A model generated the notes under the pieces. The model ran no database searches. It was given only the letters and a program-made list of their open reading frames with translations, and was not told where the DNA came from. The position numbers and the translations under genes were made by a program. From a bacterium (GTDB taxonomy: Bacteria; Patescibacteriota; Minisyncoccia; Phycocordibacterales; GCA-002787175): a stretch of 64,000 nt of DNA. Positions 8,831 through 42,950 of the stretch are shown piece after piece (the first letter of the stretch is position 1; each line of letters begins with the position of its first letter). The stretch is taken from NCBI GenBank assembly GCA_030699905.1, contig JAUYKQ010000010.1, forward strand, positions 2,554-66,553, read 5' to 3'.

Positions 8831-9769
8831 ATGACTATTATAAAATACAAAAAAATATTCTTTATCGTTACGGCTATTTTCATAGTGGCCGCCATCGCGT
8901 CTATTTCCTTCTTTGGTCTTTCCGTGAGCATTGATTTTACCGGTGGATCCATATTTGAAATAAACTACTCGGCAGAAAGGCCGACAAAAGCGGCGCTTGA
9001 GGAAAGGTTAAGTGGGGAAGGGATAAACGGCTTTTCCGTCCGTCCTTTGGGAGATAGAGGTTTTATCATACGCACGCCCGAGGCGGGGGACGACGAGAGA
9101 GCAAAGGTAGCAAGCGCGATATCTTGGGAAAGTTACGAGTCGTCAATAGACCGTTTCAGCTCTATCGGTCCGACCGTCGGCAGTGAACTGAAAACCAAGG
9201 CCCTTATCGCCATCATCGTTGTTCTTTTGATTATAATTTTCTACATTGCCTACACTTTCAGAAAAGTCGGCGGAGAAAAAGACAGCGTTTCGGCAAGGAC
9301 GGAAGTGGAAACGTTGCCTTCTTCTTTGAAATACGGACTTACCGCCATAATAACTTTAGGACACGACATTATCGTGCCAGCGGGAGCTTTTGCCGTTTAC
9401 GGGTATTTTACAGGCGCTCAAGCAGATGTTCTTTTTGTCATGGCGCTTCTTGCCATACTCGGTTATTCCGTCAATGACACCATAGTCATTTTTGACCGCG
9501 TACGAGAGAATCTTCTCAATAACAAAAAAGATAACCACAAAGAAACATTTGACGAAACGGTCGGCAAAAGCTTGTCTCAAACATACGCTCGTTCCATAAA
9601 CACTTCTCTGACCACTCTTTTTGTTCTCATAACTCTGTTTTTTATCGGTAGCGAAACAACCGCCGCCTTTGCCTTTACTTTGCTTGTTGGCGTCATCGCC
9701 GGCTCGTACTCGTCCATCTGTTTCGCCGCGCCGCTTCTTACGTCGTTCGCGAAAAAAACCCATAATTAA
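8831..9769 (+). CDS. secF: Protein translocase subunit SecF.
   Basis: SecF architecture and motifs (DFTGG..., ITLGHDIIVPAGAFA, DTIVIFDRVRENL). Confidence 0.9.
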   Translation: MTIIKYKKIFFIVTAIFIVAAIASISFFGLSVSIDFTGGSIFEINYSAERPTKAALEERLSGEGINGFSVRPLGDRGFIIRTPEAGDDERAKVASAISWESYESSIDRFSSIGPTVGSELKTKALIAIIVVLLIIIFYIAYTFRKVGGEKDSVSARTEVETLPSSLKYGLTAIITLGHDIIVPAGAFAVYGYFTGAQADVLFVMALLAILGYSVNDTIVIFDRVRENLLNNKKDNHKETFDETVGKSLSQTYARSINTSLTTLFVLITLFFIGSETTAAFAFTLLVGVIAGSYSSICFAAPLLTSFAKKTHN

Positions 9770-9819
9770 AGTCGTGGCAGTCAACCGTCTTCCTGTGGCT
9801 TTTTTGTTGATTAACTTCA

Positions 9820-9847
9820 TTGACAACACATTCAATATGAGTATAAT
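9820..9847 (+). promoter_or_regulatory. Consensus sigma70-type promoter TTGACA-16-TATAAT, ~340 nt upstream of 16S. Candidate rRNA promoter.
   Basis: ttgaca (9820-9825), 16-nt spacer, tataat (9842-9847). Confidence 0.55.
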
Positions 9848-11675
9848 AGCCGATACTGCCTTCAAAGGAGAAGGTGTGGACTTTGACAATTAAAACTTGA
9901 AATATTAAAGATTTGAGACGTGCAAGGTCTCAAAGTCTATTCCTTCCCGGCAGTAGAGAATTAAAAATTTTCACTGCGGGAAAAAAATGATTCCACCGGC
10001 TGACTAAGACAGCCGGCAGAGCAAGTTCAAACTCTTAAAACAACAAACAAAATTTCAGCAAAAACTGTCTTTTGTTTTGTTCCGTTCTAAAAATGCAGAC
10101 AAGATGCAAACAAAACTCCGGCGGACGAGGGAGGCAACTCCTCCGTAGGTCGGAGCGATGTAGGCAATAATGTCCTCATTTCTTAAATTAGAGTTTGATC
10201 CTAGCTCAGGATGAACGCTGGCGGCGTGGATAAGGCATGCAAGTCAAGGGTGTGTGCGGAGCACACAGTTTATAAAGTTATAAAGTCATAAAGTTCATAA
10301 AGTCAGAATCTTCTGCTTTACAAACTTTTTACTTTACGAACTTGTAACTTGTGCGCTTCGCGCACAACCGGCAGACGAGGTAGTAATAAGTAGGAATGTC
10401 CCCAAGAGTCAGGCATAGCTACGCGAAAGCGTGGGTAATTCCTGATGGTCTGACCGCATCACATGGAATGTGAATTAAGTTTATCAAGTTCATAAAGTTG
10501 CAAGTTTATAAAGTAAGACCAATGCCGGATTTTTTAGGCTCGCTTTTCTTACTTGATGAACTTTATAACTTTTTACTTTATAAACTTATTTCGCCTCTCA
10601 TGTGATGCGGTCAGTAAAGTCGCAAGACGCTTTTGGAACAGCCTACTCGGTATCAGCTAGATGGTAGGGTAATGGCCTACCATGGCTATGACGCCTAGGG
10701 GGGGTGAGAGCCCGATCCCCACCGATCGGACTGAGATACGGCCGATACACCTACGGGTGGCTGCAGCCGAGAATATTCCGCAATGGGCGAAAGCCTGACG
10801 GAGCGACGCCGCGTGGTTGATGAAGTTCTTAGGAATGTAAAAACCTTTTATTAGGGAGGAAGCGTGCGAAGCACACTGTACATGACACTGATGACACGAA
10901 TGTAAAGAACGAATGACACGAATAAAATTAACAAGACTTGATTTTATTCGTGTCATTCGCATCTTCTATTCGTAGATTCGTGTCGAGTTCAGCGCGCTTC
11001 GCGCGTTTGACGTTACCTGATGAATAAGGGGTTGCTAAACTCGTGCCAGCAGCAGCGGTAATACGAGTGCCCCGAGCGTTATCCGGAATCATTGGGCGTA
11101 AAGGGTGTGTAGGCGGCTTTGTTAGTCCTCTGTTAAATTCTTCGGCTCAACCGGGGTCTTGCAGGGGATACGGCAAAGCTTGAGGGTGTGAGGGGTGAAT
11201 GGAACTCATGGTGTAGGGGTGAAATCCGTTGATATCATGGGGAACACCAAAAGCGAAGGCAATTCACTGGCGCACTCCTGACGCTGAAACACGAAAGCGT
11301 GGGTAGCGAATGGGATTAGATAATCCTTGCCCGCTAATAAAACATAGGCAAAAGGTGTCTCTCCCGAAGGCGACTTCGGGATGAAAATCTAGCTGTATCG
11401 GGGAAACTCTCTGACACTATGCGCTTACTGGCGCGTTGGAGACAATCCCGAGGGAAGTTTTCTTGCATTGAAAGAAGGTTAATTTACCTGCATTGTAATT
11501 CTTGGAGCAATGCTGGTGCGAGTAAGGGAAAAGAAAAACAACTGTCCATAGTCGGAGGGTTGGGTGTTGCGGGGCTATCTGCACATCTCTTTGTCCAGGA
11601 AAAACCACCAACAGAAAGCGTGAGTAATTCGTGAAAGCGTGAATATGTGTCCCTTACTCAATTTGTTCTTTGGGC

Positions 11676-11754
11676 GCGGATGTAGCTCAGTTGGAATGAG
11701 TATCACCTTGATAAGGTGAGGGTCGCAGGGTTCGAATCCTTGCCATCCGCTCCA
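11676..11754 (+). tRNA. tRNA-Ile(GAU)-like sequence embedded in the 5' half of the 16S site-788 intron. Cloverleaf with a slightly long variable/T region; may be a functional tRNA, a pseudo-tRNA or a tRNA-like intron domain.
   Basis: Acceptor gcggatg/catccgc, D-arm gctcagttggaatgagt, anticodon stem tcacc/ggtga with loop ttGATaa, T-loop ggttcgaatcc, 3' tcca. ~70% identical to bacterial tRNA-Ile(GAU). Confidence 0.55.
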
Positions 11755-11871
11755 TTTTTCCGCCGAATTTTCGAAAAATTTGGCACCTTCTTTCAGTGCA
11801 AGACGACCCCGTAGAGACTATGAAATTGAGCAAGATAGTTGGTGCATTTTCTGTCGTAATGCAAAAAATAT

Positions 11872-12639
11872 ATGCAAAACGCGGATTCAAAATATGTGCC
11901 TTTGTCGAATCAAGTGCGAGCCATTATTCTAGGGTCAATTCTTGGAGATGGGTCGCTCAAGATTCAAAACGAGTACGCCAATGCGAATTTACAAATTCGT
12001 CATTCGGAAACTCAAAAAGACTATCTCTTATGGAAAGCGAATGTGCTTAAAGAGATAGCCGGAGATGGTAGTGTGAGCGTGCAAAAGCCGGATGGATACA
12101 GTACGAAGCCAAAGTGGAGGTTCAGGAGCAAGAGAACTCCAGCATTGACCGAACTGCATCATTTGACCTATAAGCACAATGCCTTGCGCATCAGGCGCAC
12201 ATGGTTAAATCAAATGAACGCTTTGTCGCTCGCCGTATGGTGGTGCGATGACGGTTCACTTATTGGCTACGGAGGCAGAAAAGGGGTGTTTTGTACCGAC
12301 GGCTTTGATGAAGAGTCAGTCAAAATACTTGCTCGCTATCTTGGAGTGGTTTGGAACATACGAGCGATAGTTGCTCCTGTCGGGCGAAAGCGCGATGGAA
12401 AGCAAGATCAGTATTGGCGGTTATGGATTCGTTCGCAGGAAGAATTGAAGAAATTTCTGCGTATTATCCTGCCGTACATACCTGTTTCGAGTATGCTCAA
12501 AAAAGCCATTCTACTCTATAAAGACCCTCAATTTCAACAACGCTGGATATCTGAAGTAATCAAGCTAAGTCCTTTTCCAGAATCTGTCATACTGGCGGAA
12601 TTTGAAAAAAAGAAAGCTAAATGGAATTGCTACAGATAA
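11872..12639 (+). CDS. LAGLIDADG homing endonuclease, double-motif, intron-encoded.
   Basis: Motifs LGSILGDGSL and LAVWWCDDGSL. Located inside the 16S intron. Confidence 0.85.
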   Translation: MQNADSKYVPLSNQVRAIILGSILGDGSLKIQNEYANANLQIRHSETQKDYLLWKANVLKEIAGDGSVSVQKPDGYSTKPKWRFRSKRTPALTELHHLTYKHNALRIRRTWLNQMNALSLAVWWCDDGSLIGYGGRKGVFCTDGFDEESVKILARYLGVVWNIRAIVAPVGRKRDGKQDQYWRLWIRSQEELKKFLRIILPYIPVSSMLKKAILLYKDPQFQQRWISEVIKLSPFPESVILAEFEKKKAKWNCYR

Positions 12640-12818
12640 AGATATAGTCCGGACTGCATGGAAACATGTAGAGCGAGGCAGAAATGCCCTCGCCTCCGCA
12701 TCAGGCGGAAGTAACATTTTCAACCCCAGTAGTCCACGCCCTAAACGATGTTCATTTGCTTTTCGGAGTATCGACCCTCTGAGAGGCGTAGCTAACGCGT
12801 TAAATGAACCGCCTGGGT

Positions 12819-12850
<32 letters not shown>

Positions 12851-13267
12851 AGACGGGGACTTGCACAAGCGGTGGATCATGTGGTTTAATTCGATACTAA
12901 ACGAAGAACCTTACCAAGCCTAGACATCCAAGGGAACTCCAGTAGAAATATTGGAGGCCACCACTTTGCGCGGAAGACGCAAAGTGAGTTCGTCAAGTTA
13001 TAAAGTATAAAGTTCATCAAGTTAGAGAATGTCTTACTTGATAAACTTTAAGAACTTTTGACTTGATAAACTTACTTTGTTCGCTTGCGAACAAAGTGCG
13101 GGGAGGAAGGCGAGGATGACGCCAGATCAGCATGACCCTTTGACGGCTTGGGCTACACACGTGATACAATGGCTGTTACAACACGTTTGCGACGGAGTAA
13201 TCCTGAGCTAATCGTTATAAAAGCAGCCCCAGTTCGGATTGAGGTCTGCAACTCGACCTCATGAAGT

Positions 13268-13314
<47 letters not shown>

Positions 13315-13322
13315 TCAAGTCT

Positions 13323-14262
13323 TGTACTCGGGTCGCCATGCGATCGAGTACGCTAGTTGGTGACCCGTCCTTCGTTAAAATTACGGAGGGCACGGTCCAG
13401 CTGTAATTTTTGAGCTTAATTAAATAAAAACCCCTGCTTATTTTATAAGGGGGGTTTAGGATCTAGAACTCTGAAAGCTGTTGTTGCGAGTTTCTATCTC
13501 TATTCTGCGGGACCGGCGTTGGATCTATTCAAACCAACCGCTTTCGCTTTTGGGGACTGATTTCGAACATTCTTCCAGAACTCCCTGACAAGATCCCTAA
13601 TTAATTAGGTCAGGACTATGTTACATGTTATCATATCTTGTGTTATCAGTCAAGAGCTTGAAAATTACAGCTGGACACGTTTTCGCTGAAGCTATAGCGA
13701 GGCGAGGAAATCCAACCAAGACAATTCACAGTGTCTTGAAGCGAAATACTAGTCTACTGTCCGCGAGGACTATAGATGAAGGAGTAAAGTAGCATTTCTT
13801 AGCTTGAATGCCAGTCATGGCGCATAACAGAGGTTATCCTGCGAGTACATGGAGAAACCTACTGTGTTACAAAAACTGTTATGCGTATCGTGGCATCGAG
13901 ATGAGAAAAAACAGTGTATTCGGTTACCGTGGGAGATCTCACTTGTTCTTTGTTTTTAAAGAGCAAAGTAAGCAATATATTAGGACGGGCAAAAATTTCC
14001 TAAAGTATTGATTAACAATAAGTGAGAAGTCTGCAGAGTCCGTAGTACCTATCGAAGTAAAATTTGATAGGGAAGGGACGAACTTAGAGGTTGTATGTAA
14101 TTTTTAATTTTGCATTGCTTGTCCCGTAGCGAGTTCTGCTCTGCTACAGGGATCATTTTGCATTTTGAGATTTGCATTTTAAATTTCTAAGAACCGCTAG
14201 GGTGCGGGAAAACCGCTTGCCCAGTGGTGTTTGGCTATTGAAAATAAATATCAATTGACCGA
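13323..14262 (+). other. ~940-nt ORF-less insertion in 16S near E. coli site ~1390, between cttgtac and accgcccgtca. Contains a long-range inverted repeat (13395-13411 / 13664-13680). Possibly a degenerate intron or other intervening sequence.
   Basis: Flanking conserved 16S segments gaatacgttctc...cttgtac and accgcccgtcaactcaagggagt. No ORF longer than 67 aa. Confidence 0.5.
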
Positions 14263-14353
14263 AAAACCGCCCGTCAACTCAAGGGAGTTGGGAATACCCG
14301 AAGCGCACGCTTTGCGTGCACTACGGTAAGCTCAATAACAGGGAGTAAGTCGT

Positions 14354-15287
14354 TATTGTAAAATACAATTGCGACCTGTCAAGGAAACTTGACAGAAAAA
14401 TCCAACTGAAATCGGTGAACCCCTCCTCTTTAATTTGTTATAATTAAAGGCATGAAGGCAATACCGAGGGAAGCTGGGAGAGTCACTTATTCAACGGAGA
14501 TTCGAAAGTTAAAAAATATTTCTTTTACCGAGGAGCAAAGAGCTCTCATTATTGGAAGTATTTTAGGCGACGGATGTCTGTGTGATAATTGGTCAAAGAC
14601 CAATTATCGTTTGTTTATCAATCATTGTCTGGGACAAAAAGATTACGTATGGTGGAAATACGGTGTTCTTAAGAATTATATCCTTTCAGAACCTAGATAC
14701 TATGATAGGAATAATTCCCTTACTATCCGGACCATTAGTCACTCTGAATTATCAGAATTGCGGAATGTTTTCTACAGAGATAAACAAAAAATAATTCCTC
14801 AAAATATTCAAGAATTTCTAAAGGATCCTCGCGTGCTTGCAGTATGGTTTATGGATGATGGTAACAATGTTATCCGGAATGGAAAAATTATTGGTTACCA
14901 CATCAACACACAATCATTCACACGAAAAGAAAATAAATTGCTTGCAAAATGTCTGTATGCCATTTACGGCATAGAAGCTCTGTTAGAACGAAATCATAAA
15001 AGGTATAGATTAGCAATTTGGAAGCGAGATTCGAGGTTGAAAATTAGAAACTTGGTAAAGCCGTATGTATTGGAAAGTATGCAATACAAACTCGGTTGAA
15101 TAAGCGACTCTCCTTAGCCCCGTAGAGACTGGATTCCGCTTAAAAGCGGATGAAGATAGCATGCACATAATGTGTCGCAGTGCCTCGACATTGCGATTAC
15201 GGTGCTATAAAACGTTGGCTCCATTGATAATTATCAATCGGATGAAGATATAGTCCATGCCCCAATGAAAATTGGGGAGAGAACATG
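14354..15287 (+). mobile_element. Group I intron at 16S site 1506 (between GUCGU and AACAAGG) with an internal homing endonuclease ORF. 5' exon ends in U; intron ends in G (omega G at 15287). R-like ccgtagagactgg ~15123-15136, S gaagatatagtcc ~15243-15256, P9-like hairpin ccccaatgaaaattgggg.
   Basis: Precise restoration of gtaagtcgt|aacaaggcacgggtagcggaagctgc (h45). Canonical P7 elements are present. Confidence 0.75.
14452..15099 (+). CDS. LAGLIDADG homing endonuclease, double-motif, intron-encoded.
   Basis: Motifs IIGSILGDGCL and LAVWFMDDGN. Confidence 0.85.
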   Translation: MKAIPREAGRVTYSTEIRKLKNISFTEEQRALIIGSILGDGCLCDNWSKTNYRLFINHCLGQKDYVWWKYGVLKNYILSEPRYYDRNNSLTIRTISHSELSELRNVFYRDKQKIIPQNIQEFLKDPRVLAVWFMDDGNNVIRNGKIIGYHINTQSFTRKENKLLAKCLYAIYGIEALLERNHKRYRLAIWKRDSRLKIRNLVKPYVLESMQYKLG

Positions 15288-15765
15288 AACAAGGCACGGG
15301 TAGCGGAAGCTGCTCGTGGAATATTTCAAGTGAACAATGTCAGGAGCGGATTATCGCGGATAAAAACGCTGATAGACGCCGATGACTGAACGAGTCGATA
15401 TCGCTATCTCTACGGAGTAAGCGGTGGATAAGATTAATATCCTAAAAAAAATCTGACAGACCGGAAAGACGGCACCCGCCGTATCACATGGAATGTGATA
15501 GCGGAAATCCAAAGCACGAAATACTAAATCCTAAACAATATCAAAATTCAAATGACAAAAATTCCAAACAGTAGTCTCTATTTTGAATTTAATATTTTGA
15601 TAATTTGAATTTGTTTCGGATTTCGGTATTAGAATTTCGGATTTTCCGCATCATCGTGTCTCATGTGATGCGGCGGTAAGGAACGGAACAAAACAAAGGA
15701 CAGAAGGTAAAAGAAATTTCAATTTCTAATTGTCTAATTCACATAGATGAAGACAAAGAAGGGTC

Positions 15766-15799
15766 AAAAAAACGGCTAAATATATTTAGCCGTTTTTTT
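15766..15799. terminator. Bidirectional rho-independent terminator: palindrome cggctaaata|tatttagccg flanked by A7 and T7.
   Basis: Perfect palindrome with flanking A/T runs. Confidence 0.6.
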
Positions 15800-15842
15800 G
15801 TTGCTATAGCGCGCTATTTTTGGTATATTTTCAGAGTAATTT

Positions 15843-15919
15843 GCGAGTGTAGCTCAGGTGGTTAGAGCACTCCACTGATAATGGAGAGGTCCCAAGTTCG
15901 AGTCTTGGCACTCGCACCA
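15843..15919 (+). tRNA. tRNA-Ile(GAU), with encoded CCA.
   Basis: gcgagtg ta gctc aggtggtta gagc a ctcca ctGATaa tggag aggtc ccaag ttcgagt cttgg cactcgc a cca: a canonical cloverleaf. Confidence 0.85.
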
Positions 15920-36767: not shown

Positions 36768-37745
36768 ATGTTGTCTTTTTTTATAAAACAAACTCGTATA
36801 AAAATACGCCATATAAGCAACACTTTCCGTTCGCCAACCGGCAAGTCGCCCAAAATCATAATAACAGGTGGTCTGGGGTTTATCTTTTCTCATGTTACTG
36901 AATACTACGTTCAGAAGGGCTGGGACGTGGTTGTCATAGACAACCTCTCTGAAGGCAGTTGTCCGGAAATAATAGACGATTCTTTTACGCACTACCACTA
37001 TCACATGGCCGACCCAAGAGTGGTGAATCTCATACTTCGGGAGAACCCCGATTATGTAATCCACGCGTCTTCCGTTACCGATGTGGACTACTCAATCAGA
37101 GAACCGTACAGAACCGTCCGTAAAAATATTTTAAGCACCCTGCATGTTTTTGAGGCCTGTCGGATTCTGCCTAATCTTAAAAAACTGATTTACGTTTCCA
37201 CCGATGAGGTCTTTGGTGAGTGCGACCATAAAATGCGTGAAGATGAAATAATGCTCCCGAAAAATCCATACTCCTGCGCCAAAGCGGCCGGCTCTCTTGT
37301 CAGGGTCGCTTACGACAACACTTATCCGGCTTTGCGAGGCAAGACGGCGGAAACAAGATTTTGCAACGTGTTCGGCCCGAGGCAAGACAAGGCCAAGATA
37401 ATGTCGGCCATAAAGAAAAGTATAGAAGAAGGATATTCAATACCTCTTCATCAGGAAGGCAAGGGATACAGAGAATATATTTACGTCAAGAACATTCCGC
37501 CTGCCATTGACCTTATTCTTGAGAAGGGGCTCGGTGTTTACAATGTCACGCTAAATGACGGCTTCACTACAAAAAGTTTGATAGAAAAAGCCAGAGAGGT
37601 TACGGGCATGGAAATTAAAACTCATCCCTCTCACAGGCCGGGCATGGATCTTAAATATCAAATGGACGGTTCAAAGATACGAGAACTGGGGTGGGAACCG
37701 CTTTACACTTTTGAGGAGGGGTTGAAGGAATATCTTTTGGATTAG
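36768..37745 (+). CDS. NAD-dependent sugar epimerase/dehydratase, RmlB-like NDP-hexose 4,6-dehydratase family (SDR).
   Basis: GGLGFIFSHV Rossmann motif. Catalytic YSCAKAAGSLV (YxxxK, RmlB-like). Confidence 0.7.
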   Translation: MLSFFIKQTRIKIRHISNTFRSPTGKSPKIIITGGLGFIFSHVTEYYVQKGWDVVVIDNLSEGSCPEIIDDSFTHYHYHMADPRVVNLILRENPDYVIHASSVTDVDYSIREPYRTVRKNILSTLHVFEACRILPNLKKLIYVSTDEVFGECDHKMREDEIMLPKNPYSCAKAAGSLVRVAYDNTYPALRGKTAETRFCNVFGPRQDKAKIMSAIKKSIEEGYSIPLHQEGKGYREYIYVKNIPPAIDLILEKGLGVYNVTLNDGFTTKSLIEKAREVTGMEIKTHPSHRPGMDLKYQMDGSKIRELGWEPLYTFEEGLKEYLLD

Positions 37746-38362: not shown

Positions 38363-39033
38363 TCCATCTCCTTTGCCAACCCCAGATTCTTATTTGTGTT
38401 CTCCACGGCTTTGATGAAGCCGTGGAGAAGGTTGACGTAATCGATGGCCAGTTTCTTTGCTTTGGGAAGGCGAAGTTTTGGCGGATACTCGATGATATTG
38501 TTTCTCAAATCGTCGAGTACACTTTTGGGCTCGTGATAAGTTGAGGCGGGATTTCGCTTTCCGTCCAAGTACTCGAATTCGAAAGCGGGAATATCGGACT
38601 GGAATTGCCCGGCTCGAATTATCACCGACGGCATGAGATTTGATAGACGATCGGCGTCCATCAATACTTGCTGGACGAGCGATTGGTCGTCTCGGTTCAG
38701 TTCGGCGTGTCTTAGCACTGCCTGAACAATTTCTTCCAGTTCTTGAGGGGTGAAGTATCCCTCGGGTAGGAATGCGAGGCGTTTTCTAACATGATACTCT
38801 TCCGCTCCCTTATCTCCCTTCGGAACAATTCTGTCGGTGGAGTGGAGCATGGAAGCAACCCACGCTTTGGTTCCCGTCCGTGCGTCCGGCGATATCATAA
38901 CCGCGATTTGGGCGACGGTGATATCGTGGTCAAGGCCGTGGCCTTGATGTTGTCTCGTTGAATTTTCATGGCCGGCTTTTACCGCTTCATAAAAGCGGGC
39001 AAACTTTTGCCGGAATACTTCAAAACTTCTCAT
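38359..39033 (-). CDS. HD-domain phosphohydrolase-like protein.
   Basis: HQGHGLDHDITVAQIAV...D metal-binding His/Asp pattern. Confidence 0.45.
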   Translation of the reverse strand: MRSFEVFRQKFARFYEAVKAGHENSTRQHQGHGLDHDITVAQIAVMISPDARTGTKAWVASMLHSTDRIVPKGDKGAEEYHVRKRLAFLPEGYFTPQELEEIVQAVLRHAELNRDDQSLVQQVLMDADRLSNLMPSVIIRAGQFQSDIPAFEFEYLDGKRNPASTYHEPKSVLDDLRNNIIEYPPKLRLPKAKKLAIDYVNLLHGFIKAVENTNKNLGLAKEME

Positions 39034-39128: not shown

Positions 39129-41327
39129 ATGATAAAATTTACGCATTATATGAGAAAGGTAAAGCTATTTAAACCATTTGTCAGCTGGTATGCCGTCTGG
39201 AATGTCATCAAAACACTCCGAAGTAGCCAGCTCGCGGAAGGTCCAAGGGTCAAAGAATTTGAAGAAAAGTTTGCCAAGAGGTTTGGGCTGGGAAATGTTG
39301 TGGCGGTCAATTCCGGGACGGCGGCTTTAGAGCTTGCCTATGAACTTGCGGGAATTGGAGAGGGGGATGAGGTCATAACCCCGATTTTGACATGTCTTTA
39401 TCAAAACGAAACGGTCTTGCTTTCTGATGGTCGTAAAATGTCGATAAAAAAAATGGTTAATCAAAAATATAACGGTGAAGTCGTTTCTTACAATCTAAAG
39501 ACTGGAGAATTTGAAAATAAAAAAGTCATCGGCTGGCATAAAAATCCCATTGCGGGCAGAAAATGGTATAGAGTATACTTTGAAAATTCTATTGTTTCTC
39601 GATCTCAGTCTGGTCGTAAAGGGGTGTGGCTTACTGAAAACCATCCTATTCTTACTAAGAGAGGGTATATTCTCGCAAAAGATTTGAAGAAAAATGATAT
39701 GGTTGCTACTTCTTTTTATTCACTAAATGACAAACAGAAAGAACTTTTTGAAGGCAGTATGCTTGGTGACGGGTATATTAGATTTGGCAGATCTGATAAC
39801 TCTTCGTGCAGATTTGGTTTTTTGCAGCAAAAGGTAAATGAGGATTATGTTAACTTGAAAATTAAAGCATTGAACTCTTTTGCGCATCAAAGTTATAACA
39901 AAGGGAAGTACAAACAGAGCGGTGAAGCTGTCGGGGCGATTTTTCGTTCTTCGCCTATCTGGAACTTAGAAAGGAAAAATTGGTATAAAAACGGTAAGAA
40001 AATTTTACCGACTTCGTTTCGAGAAATTACACTTTTTTCTCTTGCTGTCTGGTATATGGATGACGGAAGTAGGCAGGGGAATTCCGCGGTCATTTGTTCA
40101 GAATCTTTTACCCTTGCAGATAATGAGAGATTGATAAGCATATTGAATGATAGTCTTGGTGTGAAAGCTTCAATACAAAGTAATTATAGACACGGTAAAT
40201 TGGTTCCACGTATATACATAGGTAATGGCCACAATGGAGGTAAAATAATTAAAAAAGCGAATGCTTTTAAGTTTTTTAGAATGGTAGCCCCTTATATCCC
40301 GGAATCTTTGAGATATAAGTTGCCAGAGGATATAAGGTTGAATTGCCCATTTAATCCAAAATTGTGGGAGCTGAATAGGTCAAGGATTTTTTATGATTCT
40401 GTTTCCGTTATAAAAAATAAAAAACCTCTTGATGTTAAAAAGCACTTAAATTGGGTTTACTGCATTGATGTTGAAGACAATCACAATTTTATTTCCAAGA
40501 ACATAATTTTACACAATTGCACCGCCACAAATATCCCATTCGTCAGAAGAAAGGCAAAAATAATATTCGCCGATATTGACCGTGATTTGAACATAAGCGT
40601 GGAGGATGTCAAAAGGAAAATCACTGCCAAAACAAAAGCCATAATTTTCGTCCATTTCGGAGGCAACAATCGGGGATTGAAAGAGCTTTTGGAAATCGCT
40701 CGAGAAAAAAACATCATTTTGATAGAAGACGCGGCTCAAGCTGTCATCTCTGATTTTTGGGGTAAAAGCGACTATACTTGCGTTTCGTTTCAAGCAATAA
40801 AAACACTGACAACCGGAGACGGCGGCGCATTGCTGTGCAAGAAAAAAGACGATTATGAAAAAGCAAAAAAACTTCGCTGGTTCGGTTATGACAGAGAAAA
40901 AAAACAAAAATTCGGCGATGTTGACCTGAAGGATGCCGGATACAAATATCACATGAACGATATAAGCGCTTCTATTGGCCTCGGTAATTTGAAAGTTTTT
41001 GATAAAGCCGTGGCGCATCACAGAAAACTTATGACCACTTATAAAGAGTGCGGTATCACAGCGTATCCGTGGTTTGCTTTGCTATTGACGGAGAAACGAG
41101 ATGAGCTTAGAGCATATCTGAAAGACCACGGCATAGAGAGCGGTATGCAACACTACCGAAACGATATTTATACGATATTCGGCGGAAGAAAGAATTTTCC
41201 CATAATGGATGAGATTGAGAATAAGTATTTGCTTTTGCCTCTGCATATGGGAGTGACAATATCCGATGTAAAAAAGATATGTAATTTAATTAAAATATTT
41301 AATGAATCTTCTGATACGACCGCTTAA
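39129..41327 (+). CDS. DegT/DnrJ/EryC1/StrS-family PLP-dependent NDP-sugar aminotransferase (ArnB/perosamine synthetase-like), interrupted by an in-frame intein.
   Basis: Extein N-part ...GNVVAVNSGTAALELAYELAGIGEGDEVITPILT, then intein, then extein CTATNIPFVRRKAKIIFADID...SFQAIKTLTTGDGGALL... Confidence 0.85.
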   Translation: MIKFTHYMRKVKLFKPFVSWYAVWNVIKTLRSSQLAEGPRVKEFEEKFAKRFGLGNVVAVNSGTAALELAYELAGIGEGDEVITPILTCLYQNETVLLSDGRKMSIKKMVNQKYNGEVVSYNLKTGEFENKKVIGWHKNPIAGRKWYRVYFENSIVSRSQSGRKGVWLTENHPILTKRGYILAKDLKKNDMVATSFYSLNDKQKELFEGSMLGDGYIRFGRSDNSSCRFGFLQQKVNEDYVNLKIKALNSFAHQSYNKGKYKQSGEAVGAIFRSSPIWNLERKNWYKNGKKILPTSFREITLFSLAVWYMDDGSRQGNSAVICSESFTLADNERLISILNDSLGVKASIQSNYRHGKLVPRIYIGNGHNGGKIIKKANAFKFFRMVAPYIPESLRYKLPEDIRLNCPFNPKLWELNRSRIFYDSVSVIKNKKPLDVKKHLNWVYCIDVEDNHNFISKNIILHNCTATNIPFVRRKAKIIFADIDRDLNISVEDVKRKITAKTKAIIFVHFGGNNRGLKELLEIAREKNIILIEDAAQAVISDFWGKSDYTCVSFQAIKTLTTGDGGALLCKKKDDYEKAKKLRWFGYDREKKQKFGDVDLKDAGYKYHMNDISASIGLGNLKVFDKAVAHHRKLMTTYKECGITAYPWFALLLTEKRDELRAYLKDHGIESGMQHYRNDIYTIFGGRKNFPIMDEIENKYLLLPLHMGVTISDVKKICNLIKIFNESSDTTA
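39393..40517 (+). mobile_element. Intein (375 aa) with a LAGLIDADG homing endonuclease domain, inserted at the conserved PxxTF(I/V)ATAN motif of the DegT aminotransferase.
   Basis: Starts CLYQNETVLLSDGRK (intein block A) and ends NIILHN followed by +1 Cys. Internal LAGLIDADG motifs SMLGDGYI and LAVWYMDDGS. Length divisible by 3. Confidence 0.8.
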
Positions 41328-42090
41328 ATATATCAATAGTTTGCCGTTTCCCGTCACCGTTCGCCATTACGCATCGTTTGGTCACATAGGGAGACGTCTG
41401 AAAGATGGCGAATTGCGCTCAAAAGAAAGCTGGCAAACTCTTCGAGATGAACATCCCCGCTACAGAATCCCGCAAGACAGAGAGACATGGATACACGAAC
41501 TTTCTTTAAACAAGGATGGTCAGGACGACAAGTTGCAGGAAAGGATAAATGCCTTTGTTGCCCTAATTGAAAAAGAAGGTATAAGGACTGTATATTCTAT
41601 TGGAGCCGGTGGTGGGGTTTTTGAGTATTATTTAAAAAAACGATTGCCTTATATTAAGATCGTAGCATCTGAGTTAACCCAAATGGGCGTCGATCGGTTG
41701 CGACGGGTTTTTATTGAATGTGATACTGTGGAGCGTTTTGATGCCCTTAACGCGGAACATTGGAAGAAAATTGGTTCGGACCCGGAAGGTGTCGTTTTCA
41801 TATACCGCAACGAGCGTGAGTTTTCAGATGAGGACTGGAGGAAAATGTTTCGTTACATGGACGAAGCTGGCGTTCAAAAAGTATTTTTGGGGATTATGTA
41901 TATGCTAACGGTGTCTGCTTTTGTCCAAGAAAAAATAAGGAATTTAAAGCGCAGGTTTCGGGGAGAATCCGTTACGTTTGTCGGATACTTGAGAAGTCAC
42001 GAAGCATTTAGAACTTTTTGGGAAGACAGGTATAATGAACGGGAGATAAGCTTTCCAAATTGTCGAGGACTGTATTTAACCAGAACTTAA
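41302..42090 (+). CDS. Class I SAM-dependent methyltransferase-like protein.
   Basis: Motif I VYSIGAGGGVFEYYL. Confidence 0.45.
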   Translation: MNLLIRPLKYINSLPFPVTVRHYASFGHIGRRLKDGELRSKESWQTLRDEHPRYRIPQDRETWIHELSLNKDGQDDKLQERINAFVALIEKEGIRTVYSIGAGGGVFEYYLKKRLPYIKIVASELTQMGVDRLRRVFIECDTVERFDALNAEHWKKIGSDPEGVVFIYRNEREFSDEDWRKMFRYMDEAGVQKVFLGIMYMLTVSAFVQEKIRNLKRRFRGESVTFVGYLRSHEAFRTFWEDRYNEREISFPNCRGLYLTRT

Positions 42091-42095
42091 TTTAT

Positions 42096-42926
42096 ATGAA
42101 AACAGCAAAAAAGTTAGCCGTTATCGCCGGGGGGTGGCATTTCCCCATAGCATTCTTTGAACAGATAGCGGCGCAAAAGATACCTGAAGCATGGGAGGTT
42201 CAAATGTTTTTGGTATCACATCGTGATCCGTCATACGCCATAGAGGAAAAAAAGAATCTATTGCTGAATTTAGGGTATGACCGAAGAGCTCTCTATGACC
42301 GTCTTTTGTATCGTAAGGTCGCAACCGTGGAAGAAATAGAGGCATTAGGATGGAAATACGTATTGGAGCCGAATACGATGGGAGATTGGGGAAATACCAA
42401 CCAGTGGCTTGAGAAGAACGATTATAAAAATTATGACAAGTTTCTCGTCACGCACGATGACAACTTCATCCTTACCGACCGGATGTTCATGGACATTCTT
42501 CCGCAAGAAGATTGGCTTATTTTGACGAATTCTACCGGCAACGCGCAACGACGACTCCGTCAATGGTTGCATTTACCAAAGCCGTTCGCCTTACGCGGTT
42601 CGTTTGAATTTTTTACGCGCGAGATGTTTGATCTTATGGGCGGGAAATTTGATCTTTCACGCACCACTCTTACTCGCGAGGGTCAATTTACCACCTCGGG
42701 GGATTTTTCAGAGTTGAGTGACTGGAATCAAAACGATAAACCATTGAGGGATTTTATTTCGGCCCACAATCTTAAAGATAAAATAAAAGCCCTGTCACCG
42801 TTTTACCGCATGAGCAAATACTGTCTGGAAGGAGAAAGGGGATATATTCACAAGACAGAAAAATCCAACACCAAGGAAGAAGAAAAAGGACTTGACGCGG
42901 TAGAGGTGTATTATGGCAGAAAATAA
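42096..42926 (+). CDS. Hypothetical protein.
   Basis: ORF in operon context. Start at MKTAKK. Confidence 0.4.
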   Translation: MKTAKKLAVIAGGWHFPIAFFEQIAAQKIPEAWEVQMFLVSHRDPSYAIEEKKNLLLNLGYDRRALYDRLLYRKVATVEEIEALGWKYVLEPNTMGDWGNTNQWLEKNDYKNYDKFLVTHDDNFILTDRMFMDILPQEDWLILTNSTGNAQRRLRQWLHLPKPFALRGSFEFFTREMFDLMGGKFDLSRTTLTREGQFTTSGDFSELSDWNQNDKPLRDFISAHNLKDKIKALSPFYRMSKYCLEGERGYIHKTEKSNTKEEEKGLDAVEVYYGRK

Positions 42927-42950
42927 AACCAAGCCGTTCTTTGGATTAAC

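Follow-up and report, generated by a model that had tools for sequence, protein, structure and literature searches.

A probable class 1 intein with a nested I-SceI-type LAGLIDADG nuclease in a DegT-family nucleotide-sugar aminotransferase gene of the candidate phyla radiation

What are the 375 extra codons that interrupt a predicted sugar aminotransferase gene, in frame and inside a conserved motif, in a genome of the candidate phyla radiation (CPR)? The gene lies on a 64,000-nt stretch of contig JAUYKQ010000010.1 (GenBank assembly GCA_030699905.1, contig positions 2,554 to 66,553; the whole of this stretch is hereafter the window), from a bacterium placed in Patescibacteriota by the Genome Taxonomy Database (GTDB). 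It consists of a forward-strand open reading frame (ORF) at 39129..41327, translating to 732 aa, whose product belongs to the DegT/DnrJ/EryC1/StrS family of pyridoxal 5'-phosphate (PLP)-dependent sugar aminotransferases, and the insert spans 39393..40517 on the same strand (1125 nt). With a probability of roughly 0.85, we interpret the insert as a class 1 intein that encloses a LAGLIDADG nuclease of I-SceI type, located at the site TP(I/V)LT|CTATN of a DegT nucleotide-sugar aminotransferase within a glycan cluster of a Parcubacteria/CPR genome. To an already known intein family it adds a new host and a new insertion-site allele, without being a system of a new kind. A full-text literature search, with most subscription journals outside its coverage, returned no paper describing a natural intein in a DegT or other aminotransferase gene, or in a CPR protein-coding gene.

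Splicing blocks, fold and the empty insertion site

Translation of the window reproduced to the base the boundaries proposed by an earlier, sequence-only reading, namely a 375-codon element running from Cys to ILHN, after which comes CTATNIPF with its +1 Cys. At the 5' junction, ACA (39390) precedes TGT (39393), which encodes Cys1 and continues with CTT TAT, the insert opening CLYQNETVLLSDGRK. At the 3' junction, the codons TTA CAC AAT end on the terminal Asn of NIILHN (40515-40517) and are followed by TGC (40518), the +1 Cys. The flanking N-extein occupies 39129..39392 (+) and comprises 88 aa from the first ATG or 81 aa from a second start at M8, ending DEVITPILT, whilst the C-extein occupies 40518..41327 (+) and comprises 269 aa plus the stop codon.

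Profile searches recovered intein signatures above their cut-offs and well outside the range of chance matches, including Pfam Intein_splicing PF14890 (50.8 bits against a cut-off of 35.8, for the 375-aa segment alone), NCBIfam TIGR01445 intein_Nterm across residues 1-88 (26.5 against 24.5 bits) and TIGR01443 intein_Cterm across residues 354-375 (25.7 against 15.6 bits). The N-terminal half of the HINT domain (residues 1-106, 39393..39710, +), delimited by TIGR01445, the invariant T81/H84 pair and structural matches from Foldseek, holds block A with Cys1 (39393-39431) and block B, GVWLTENHPILT (39621-39656), in which T81-E-N-H84 forms the Thr-x-x-His signature. The C-terminal half (residues 321-375, 40353..40517, +), delimited by TIGR01443 and alignments A2 and A4, holds block F, WVYCIDVEDNHNFI (40452-40493), with Cys357 at block F position 4 (F:4) and His364, and block G, NIILHN (40500-40517). 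With these profile matches and blocks A, B, F and G all located, the intein proposed by the sequence-only reading was borne out.

The residues expected to act in splicing are conserved. T81 and H84 are invariant both in alignment A2, which contains the intein and 18 relatives from other host proteins, and in alignment A4 of DegT-site inteins; D224, G225, H374 and N375 are likewise invariant in A2, with C1 nearly so, and N375 is invariant in A4 also. Among the 18 same-site DegT inteins described below, Cys1, T81xxH84, N375 and the +1 Cys are invariant, and the penultimate residue is H, S or K (His374 here). Cys1 is further invariant among all 174 family members gathered in this analysis. An AlphaFold2 model of the intein, built on A2, had a mean pLDDT of 88.9 and a pTM of 0.87, and Foldseek searches of the PDB matched it to the Mtu RecA, Ssp DnaB and Npu DnaB mini-inteins with root-mean-square deviations (rmsd) of 1.5-1.9 Å over ~107 columns (1.9 Å for the match of the Mtu RecA mini-intein to the HINT domain). 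Matches to the whole intein were led by TliVMA (E=2e-14) and PI-SceI. All defining sequence features of an intein that lend themselves to computational checking are thus present, and the insert is a bona fide, canonical class 1 intein that is probably competent for splicing.

Orthologues lacking the insert confirmed its exact extent. The best 120 relatives of the exteins, taken from a collection of 5.8 billion protein clusters, were all 325-363 aa long, hence intein-free, and were up to 78% identical to the exteins; the named members came from Parcubacteria, Patescibacteria, Pacebacteria, Minisyncoccota and Gracilibacteria. Nearly all of the 120 read DEVITP[VI]LTCTATN[IL]P without interruption. 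The sequence-only reading had given the interrupted motif as PxxTF(I/V)ATAN, which requires correction, as this subfamily reads TP(I/V)LTCTATN(I/L)P; in the comparison with intein-less orthologues that it had proposed, the insert was exactly absent. Exact excision thus reconstitutes the conserved family motif, in which the +1 Cys belongs to the enzyme itself. The same empty site was evident at the DNA level in a syntenic locus of a related Parcubacterium (L003/L004), which comprises a GT1 gene, a NAD-epimerase/dehydratase gene, a small minus-strand gene, a 335-aa DegT gene, a methyltransferase gene and a gene of 276 aa. Comparison of L003 with the window by blastn gave matching blocks at 36849-37733, 38547-38709, 39149-39395, 40518-41305 and 42114-42928. 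Since these blocks end at 39395 and resume at 40518, DNA homology breaks exactly at the intein ends.

The nested nuclease, its relatives and its occurrence among DegT genes

Between the two HINT halves lies a LAGLIDADG_2 domain of I-SceI type (residues ~107-320, 39711..40352, +), identified by Pfam, phmmer and Foldseek. Pfam LAGLIDADG_2 PF03161 matched residues 120-277 (E=1e-28, 100.9 bits against a cut-off of 25), and both LAGLIDADG motifs named by the sequence-only reading are present, SMLGDGYI at residues 122-129 (39756-39779, with D126) and LAVWYMDDGS at residues 217-226 (40041-40070, with D224). A phmmer match to I-SceI (1e-6) aligned LGD126 and MDD224 with the LGD and MDDG motifs of that enzyme, which we take to hold its catalytic D44 and D145. 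Foldseek matched the central domain to I-SceI and I-WcaI at target-normalised TM-scores of 0.70-0.71 (I-SceI 0.71, rmsd 3.4 Å, 217 columns, 24% identity), and the order of secondary structures in the AlphaFold2 model follows the pseudo-dimeric alpha-beta-beta-alpha-beta-beta-alpha fold of monomeric LAGLIDADG enzymes. The acidic motifs are kept in 16/18 same-site inteins and degenerate in P0174 (LGN, MNY) and P0182 (LSD, MGD). With both acidic residues in place, the nuclease is probably active, D126 and D224 being its predicted catalytic residues. Its candidate cleavage target is the intein-less junction ACCCCGATTTTGACA|TGCACCGCCACAAATATC, to which the empty site of L003 is identical at 43/60 nt; the spliced-junction DNA may also be given at the alternative extent GGGGATGAGGTCATAACCCCGATTTTGACA|TGCACCGCCACAAATATCCCATTCGTCAGA.

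The closest known systems share this architecture and differ in host. The RecA insertion type GVMFG|C...VHN|SPETT, which we take to be the M. leprae-type RecA-b intein, resembles the present element over its full length (25-30% identity across residues 1-375), combining a HINT domain with a nested LAGLIDADG_2-type nuclease and sharing the motifs SLMGDG, LAVWYMDDGS and MEYKLL, Cys1, the block B TxxH and a terminal HN. Among the matches listed, it occurred in Mycobacterium, Micromonospora, Nocardiopsis, Rhodococcus and others, and it is abundant in cultured Actinomycetota, not in CPR; it differs in having RecA as host, Ser at +1 and Asp at F:4. Phage inteins in GenBank are likewise related, with tblastn matches covering 100% of the 375 aa at 22-27% identity and E-values down to 3e-27, and reside in DNA polymerases of T5-like phages (for example Escherichia phage SelmaRatti, 'intein-containing DNA polymerase precursor'), mycobacteriophage RNA ligases and UvsX-like recombinases, all nucleic-acid or virion proteins in contrast to a sugar-modifying PLP enzyme. 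Metagenomic relatives were found in RNA ligase, UDG, dCMP deaminase, PhoH, RuvB, portal protein, C5-methylase and SAM methyltransferase genes. We rejected the idea that the nuclease is of an unusual type for an intein, given the same LAGLIDADG_2-type architecture in RecA-b and in the annotated phage inteins. A precedent among carbohydrate enzymes exists in archaea, in the inteins of UDP-glucose dehydrogenase and GlmS of Methanocaldococcus (InBase); these differ in host family and domain of life and presumably in nuclease type.

The best solved match to the nuclease, I-SceI (PDB 1R7M, 5A0M), is a monomer with two LAGLIDADG motifs whose catalytic Asp residues align with those here, but it is a free-standing enzyme encoded by a mitochondrial group I intron, whereas the present nuclease is nested in a protein-splicing domain. 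LAGLIDADG_2 endonucleases are also known from rRNA insertions of CPR bacteria (PMC11270868). Two such ORFs occur in the rRNA region of the window (11872..12639 and 14452..15099), in agreement with the sequence-only reading, which had counted the intein as the third LAGLIDADG element of the window. Both fall into the Pfam family of the intein nuclease domain, with which they share 24-27% identity, but are free-standing proteins of ~210-255 aa in rRNA intervening sequences, with no HINT domain and no in-frame host protein.

To describe the distribution of the element, we searched 1.84 billion cluster representatives exhaustively with HMMER, then re-analysed the results locally and aligned them. 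This uncovered at least 17 other full-length DegT proteins whose intein occupies exactly the same site, which together with the present one make up the 18 same-site inteins. A same-site intein in P0172 was mapped by phmmer only, and four C-terminal fragments (P0002, P0040, P0188 and P0194) carried the C-terminal end of an intein at the same junction. The same-site relatives are ~31-63% identical to the present intein. The nearest carrier, P0166, shares 63% identity in the intein and 51% in the exteins, whilst exteins that are 78% identical are intein-free. Across the 18 proteins, pairwise identities of inteins and exteins were uncorrelated (r=-0.003, Mantel p=0.48), and P0170 and P0189, for example, share 51% identity in the intein and 23% in the exteins. 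The distribution is thus both sporadic and incongruent with that of the host genes. A scan of GTDB genomes returned RecA-b and UDG inteins as its best 80 loci and provides no measure of how frequent DegT inteins are in named genomes.

Further same-site inteins were found on contigs of other provenance. Two IMG/VR contigs, L087 (47.9 kb) and L090 (82 kb), contain DegT genes with a same-site intein at 40-41% identity, beside genes for glycan enzymes and a GIY-YIG/NUMOD3 endonuclease. On a 103-kb Logan contig (SRR22746129, L001:5186-7425), a divergent DegT gene with a same-site intein was called as three genes owing to two frameshifts, reflecting either a decaying intein or assembly errors; among the genes next to it are one like a GT29 sialyltransferase and one like a CMP-sugar synthetase. 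The degenerate motifs of P0174 and P0182 and the frameshifts of L001 are as expected for a homing cycle. The composition of the present intein is also distinctive, its GC content of 34.8% lying below that of the exteins (45.8% and 39.8%), of the window as a whole (mean 42.9%, standard deviation 2.7) and of every sampled 1125-nt window of the 64 kb. Taken together, composition and distribution indicate a horizontal and fairly recent arrival in this lineage. The same-site intein has travelled between widely divergent DegT genes, with viruses possibly acting as carriers.

If the insert acts as a class 1 intein, the PLP enzyme would first be made in two parts, and presumably without activity, within a precursor of 725-732 aa. 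Cys1 would undergo an N-S acyl shift, helped by Thr81 and His84 of block B, the N-extein would pass to the +1 Cys, Asn375 would cyclise with the help of His374, and an S-N shift would release a mature aminotransferase of ~40 kDa with its motif restored, together with a free 43-kDa intein. The computed products are a spliced enzyme of 350 aa and 39.7 kDa from M8 (357 aa and 40.6 kDa from M1) and a free intein of 375 aa and 43.4 kDa with an isoelectric point of 9.8. The free intein, or the precursor, would then serve as a monomeric LAGLIDADG endonuclease (Asp126, Asp224) that cuts intein-less TP(I/V)LTCTATN-coding DNA, and repair templated by the intein-bearing copy would spread the element by homing.

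Several observations weigh against this interpretation of a splicing and mobile class 1 intein. Homing endonucleases are typically rich in Lys and Asn, and this, not recent transfer, may account for part of the low GC content. The correlation test compared identities that are noisy and spread over a narrow range (about 25-60%). For L087 and L090, a viral nature is predicted by IMG/VR only, the local genes being glycan enzymes and a GIY-YIG endonuclease. Many same-site relatives carry Ser or Lys at the penultimate position that is His here, and F:4 is Cys and not the usual Asp of standard inteins, so details of the reaction may deviate.

A possible, though clearly less probable, alternative is that the intein splices but that its endonuclease is non-functional or has no target, leaving a passenger that is fixed and passed on vertically at a late stage of the homing cycle. 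Same-site inteins do decay, as the degenerate motifs of P0174 and P0182 and the two frameshifts in L001 suggest, and the two sources that hold the present gene, GenBank and Logan, contain the same intein-bearing allele. However, the confident model shows an unbroken 200-aa nuclease fold with both predicted catalytic Asp residues retained, the extreme GC deviation speaks against long residence, and the nearest orthologues all have an empty site, so targets exist in the community. We therefore retain the reading of a splicing intein with a probably active nuclease.

Block F position 4 and the splicing mechanism

Cys357 occupies block F position 4, which we located by counting 18 residues back from the terminal Asn and checked against the corresponding MAFFT column. 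The usual Asp is absent from this position, where it is common among inteins without being a defining residue. Mtu RecA D422 and the corresponding Asp of Ssp DnaB presumably sit at the same offset, and the RecA-b relatives have Asp in the F:4 column of the MAFFT alignment. Among standard inteins F:4 is usually Asp, with Cys reported only in class 3 'WCT' inteins, where it is an obligate nucleophile (PMC2807308). Class 3 inteins are defined by the lack of an N-terminal nucleophile together with Trp at B:12, Cys at F:4 and Thr at G:5 (PMC2807308). Assignment to class 3 was rejected, as Cys1 is present and both the Trp and the Thr of the WCT set are absent, B:12 being Ile86 and G:5 being Leu373.

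The combination of three cysteines is nevertheless common among relatives of the intein. Over the 174 family members, all of which begin with Cys1, 64 combined Cys at F:4 with Cys at +1, 87 combined Asp with Ser, 12 combined Asp with Cys and the remaining 11 had other or gapped residues at F:4 or +1. Every member with Cys at F:4 (64/64) also carried Cys1 and Cys+1, whilst Asp members mostly carried Ser+1, a pattern that is confounded by relatedness in that the 87 Asp/Ser cases represent one RecA clade. At the DegT site, Cys at F:4 is nearly invariant (alignment A4); P0176 has Asp at F:4 at this very site, and the Cys is therefore not essential there.

This pattern invites a broader proposal, which we consider speculative and rather unlikely, that the DegT-site inteins and many of their relatives form a natural 'triple-cysteine' group. 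Were Cys357 to attack the N-terminal junction or to exchange a thioester, such inteins might be intermediates between class 1 and class 3; alternatively, they might be redox- or metal-gated switches on a surface-glycan enzyme. As a separate part of the proposal, DegT would be a multi-site intein host outside nucleic-acid metabolism that is occupied at five or more sites, all in conserved motifs. A transition from class 1 to class 3 was considered improbable in a structural study (PMC7664689).

Slightly more doubtful still is that the present intein is itself a conditional switch, in which Cys1, Cys357 and Cys+1 would render splicing redox- or metal-responsive and so gate the aminotransferase and the surface glycan, Cys357 perhaps acting as a class-3-like alternative nucleophile. 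The near-invariance of Cys at F:4 in the DegT-site inteins, its company of Cys1 and Cys+1 in all 64 family members that carry it, and the obligate role of the equivalent residue in class 3 inteins (PMC2807308) all favour such a switch, as does the redox and zinc sensitivity reported for mycobacterial DnaB inteins (PMC6195587, PMC7360933). Yet the co-variation of the cysteines is confounded by phylogeny through the 87 Asp/Ser cases from one RecA clade, the WCT partners are absent (Ile86, Leu373), Cys1 is invariant and P0176 has Asp at F:4.

It is very improbable that the insertion is splicing-dead and the gene in effect a pseudogene with an inactivated aminotransferase, as beyond the atypical F:4 residue nothing specific points that way, whilst the 732-codon frame is open, the exteins keep the invariant catalytic Lys and Asp, and the conservation of canonical splice-junction residues across ~31-63%-identical relatives implies selection on splicing. 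That the insert is instead a lineage-specific accessory domain of the enzyme, without intein blocks, is refuted by intein profiles above their cut-offs, the HINT fold, the nested nuclease and the Cys1, HN and Cys+1 junctions, by its exact absence from 78%-identical orthologues, and by the presence of the same element in RecA, RuvB, portal, RNA ligase, UDG, methylase and DNA polymerase genes.

The host gene, other insertions and wider meaning

The host gene is a well-supported member of its family. Over the whole ORF, Pfam PF01041 DegT_DnrJ_EryC1 matched at 3e-64 (217.9 bits), with a split at profile position 75 where its two pieces meet; the C-extein piece covers ORF residues 465-721 and profile positions 75-359. 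The PLP Lys (SFQAIK, K558), an Asp (IEDAAQA, D534) and the +1 Cys (C464) are invariant in alignment A1, and the spliced sequence matched solved nucleotide-sugar aminotransferases (4XAU, 4ZWV, ArnB, CalS13) at up to 1e-39. None of the NCBIfam equivalogs examined (PseC, ArnB, WecE, LegC, DesI and others) came near its cut-off, with PseC, for example, scoring 148.7 against 423.5. The +1 Cys aligns with a Phe of 4XAU (LTFEATN); an aromatic residue at this position presumably stacks on the PLP ring in structures of the family. Neighbouring genes include a UDP-glucose dehydrogenase-like gene, a GT1 gene, a 4,6-dehydratase-like epimerase gene (36768..37745) and a PMT_2/ArnT-like transferase gene. With a 4,6-dehydratase-like gene in the neighbourhood, a 4-keto-6-deoxy sugar is suggested as substrate, and a glycan pathway with a 4-amino-4,6-dideoxy sugar would fit the neighbouring genes.

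The GenBank protein MDP3996361.1 (725 aa) is 100% identical to the translation across all 725 residues, begins at M8 (nt 39150) and is named 'MAG: aminotransferase class V-fold PLP-dependent enzyme [bacterium]', with no mention of an intein. The longest ORF begins 7 codons upstream of this start. As orthologues without the intein begin near the corresponding MRKVKLF, ATG 39150 is the likelier start. The next ORF (41302..42090) overlaps the 3' end of the aminotransferase gene by 26 nt. Three ORFs on the opposite strand (39893..40141, 40481..40717 and 40509..41021) had no support and were dismissed as chance ORFs.

The sequence-only reading had regarded a surface-glycan enzyme as an uncommon intein host, which holds in so far as no literature was found, but the case is not unique, with at least 17 other same-site DegT clusters and further occupied sites in DegT proteins. 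At the R|C site within fR|CeqDI, a related LAGLIDADG_2 intein occurred in P0191, P0198, P0214, P0264 and P0219, and in truncated form in P0246. A LAGLIDADG_2-type intein was found inside GYKY(Q)|C (GYKYxMND) in P0185 and P0199. Just before C(F/W)SFQAIK, by the PLP lysine, P0172 and P0219 contain Hint_2-type inserts with no nuclease match, bringing these two proteins to two inteins each, and just after QAIKTLTS a LAGLIDADG_3 intein was detected in P0238. Sugar-nucleotide enzymes of uncultured bacteria thus appear to be recurrent intein hosts.

Other loci held additional candidates. The contig that encodes P0166 (L006) also encodes a 712-aa NAD-epimerase/dehydratase with a faint LAGLIDADG_3 match (8968-11106) as well as a 1344-aa protein that matches intein and LAGLIDADG_3 models faintly (1-1172); both are likely to contain additional inteins within this glycan locus. 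A related LAGLIDADG_2 intein with 34% identity was present on an IMG/VR contig (L092:1346-3847, GC 29.8%), in a host ORF resembling a fusion of a HAD phosphatase with a sugar-phosphate nucleotidyltransferase, and related inteins on L088, L089 and L091 lay in ORFs that may encode phage portal proteins, by analogy with a Phage_portal match on P0281. Within the window, no further intein was detected in the ten other large ORFs scanned.

The rRNA genes of the window are also interrupted. The 16S rRNA gene (10183-13354) was recovered as two Rfam matches (10183-11392 and 12576-13354) separated by a 1.2-kb insert, which contains a tRNA-Ile(GAU)-like sequence (11676-11754), the first LAGLIDADG_2 ORF (255 aa, 11872-12639) and a sub-threshold match to a group I intron (12474-12671). 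The combined length of both 16S pieces is above 1533 nt, which makes additional small insertions likely. Between the 3' end of the 16S gene and a second tRNA-Ile(GAU) (15843-15919), the interval 13355-15919 contains a group II intron D1-D4 match above the gathering score (14009-14078), the second LAGLIDADG_2 ORF (215 aa, 14452-15099, GC 35.6%) and, below threshold, a match to a group I intron (14941-15277). The sequences of the two tRNA-Ile copies clearly differ. The 3' end of the 23S gene (542-930) and the 5S gene (1101-1219) lie ~9 kb upstream of the 16S gene (10183) on the same strand, and since protein-coding genes (glycosyltransferases, SecDF) intervene, the rRNA genes are unlinked or in an unusual order.

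Overall, this intein extends the known intein hosts by a PLP-dependent nucleotide-sugar aminotransferase and by a CPR/Patescibacteria genome. The product name in GenBank illustrates that automated annotation overstates the size of the enzyme and hides the mobile element. With T|C as its defined native junction, the element is a candidate reagent both for splicing and as a meganuclease, and the Cys at F:4 beside Cys1 and Cys+1 provides a testable lead on the diversity of splicing mechanisms and on conditional splicing. Ultimately, occupancy at multiple sites and in divergent genes makes DegT a convenient non-replicative system for studies of intein homing.

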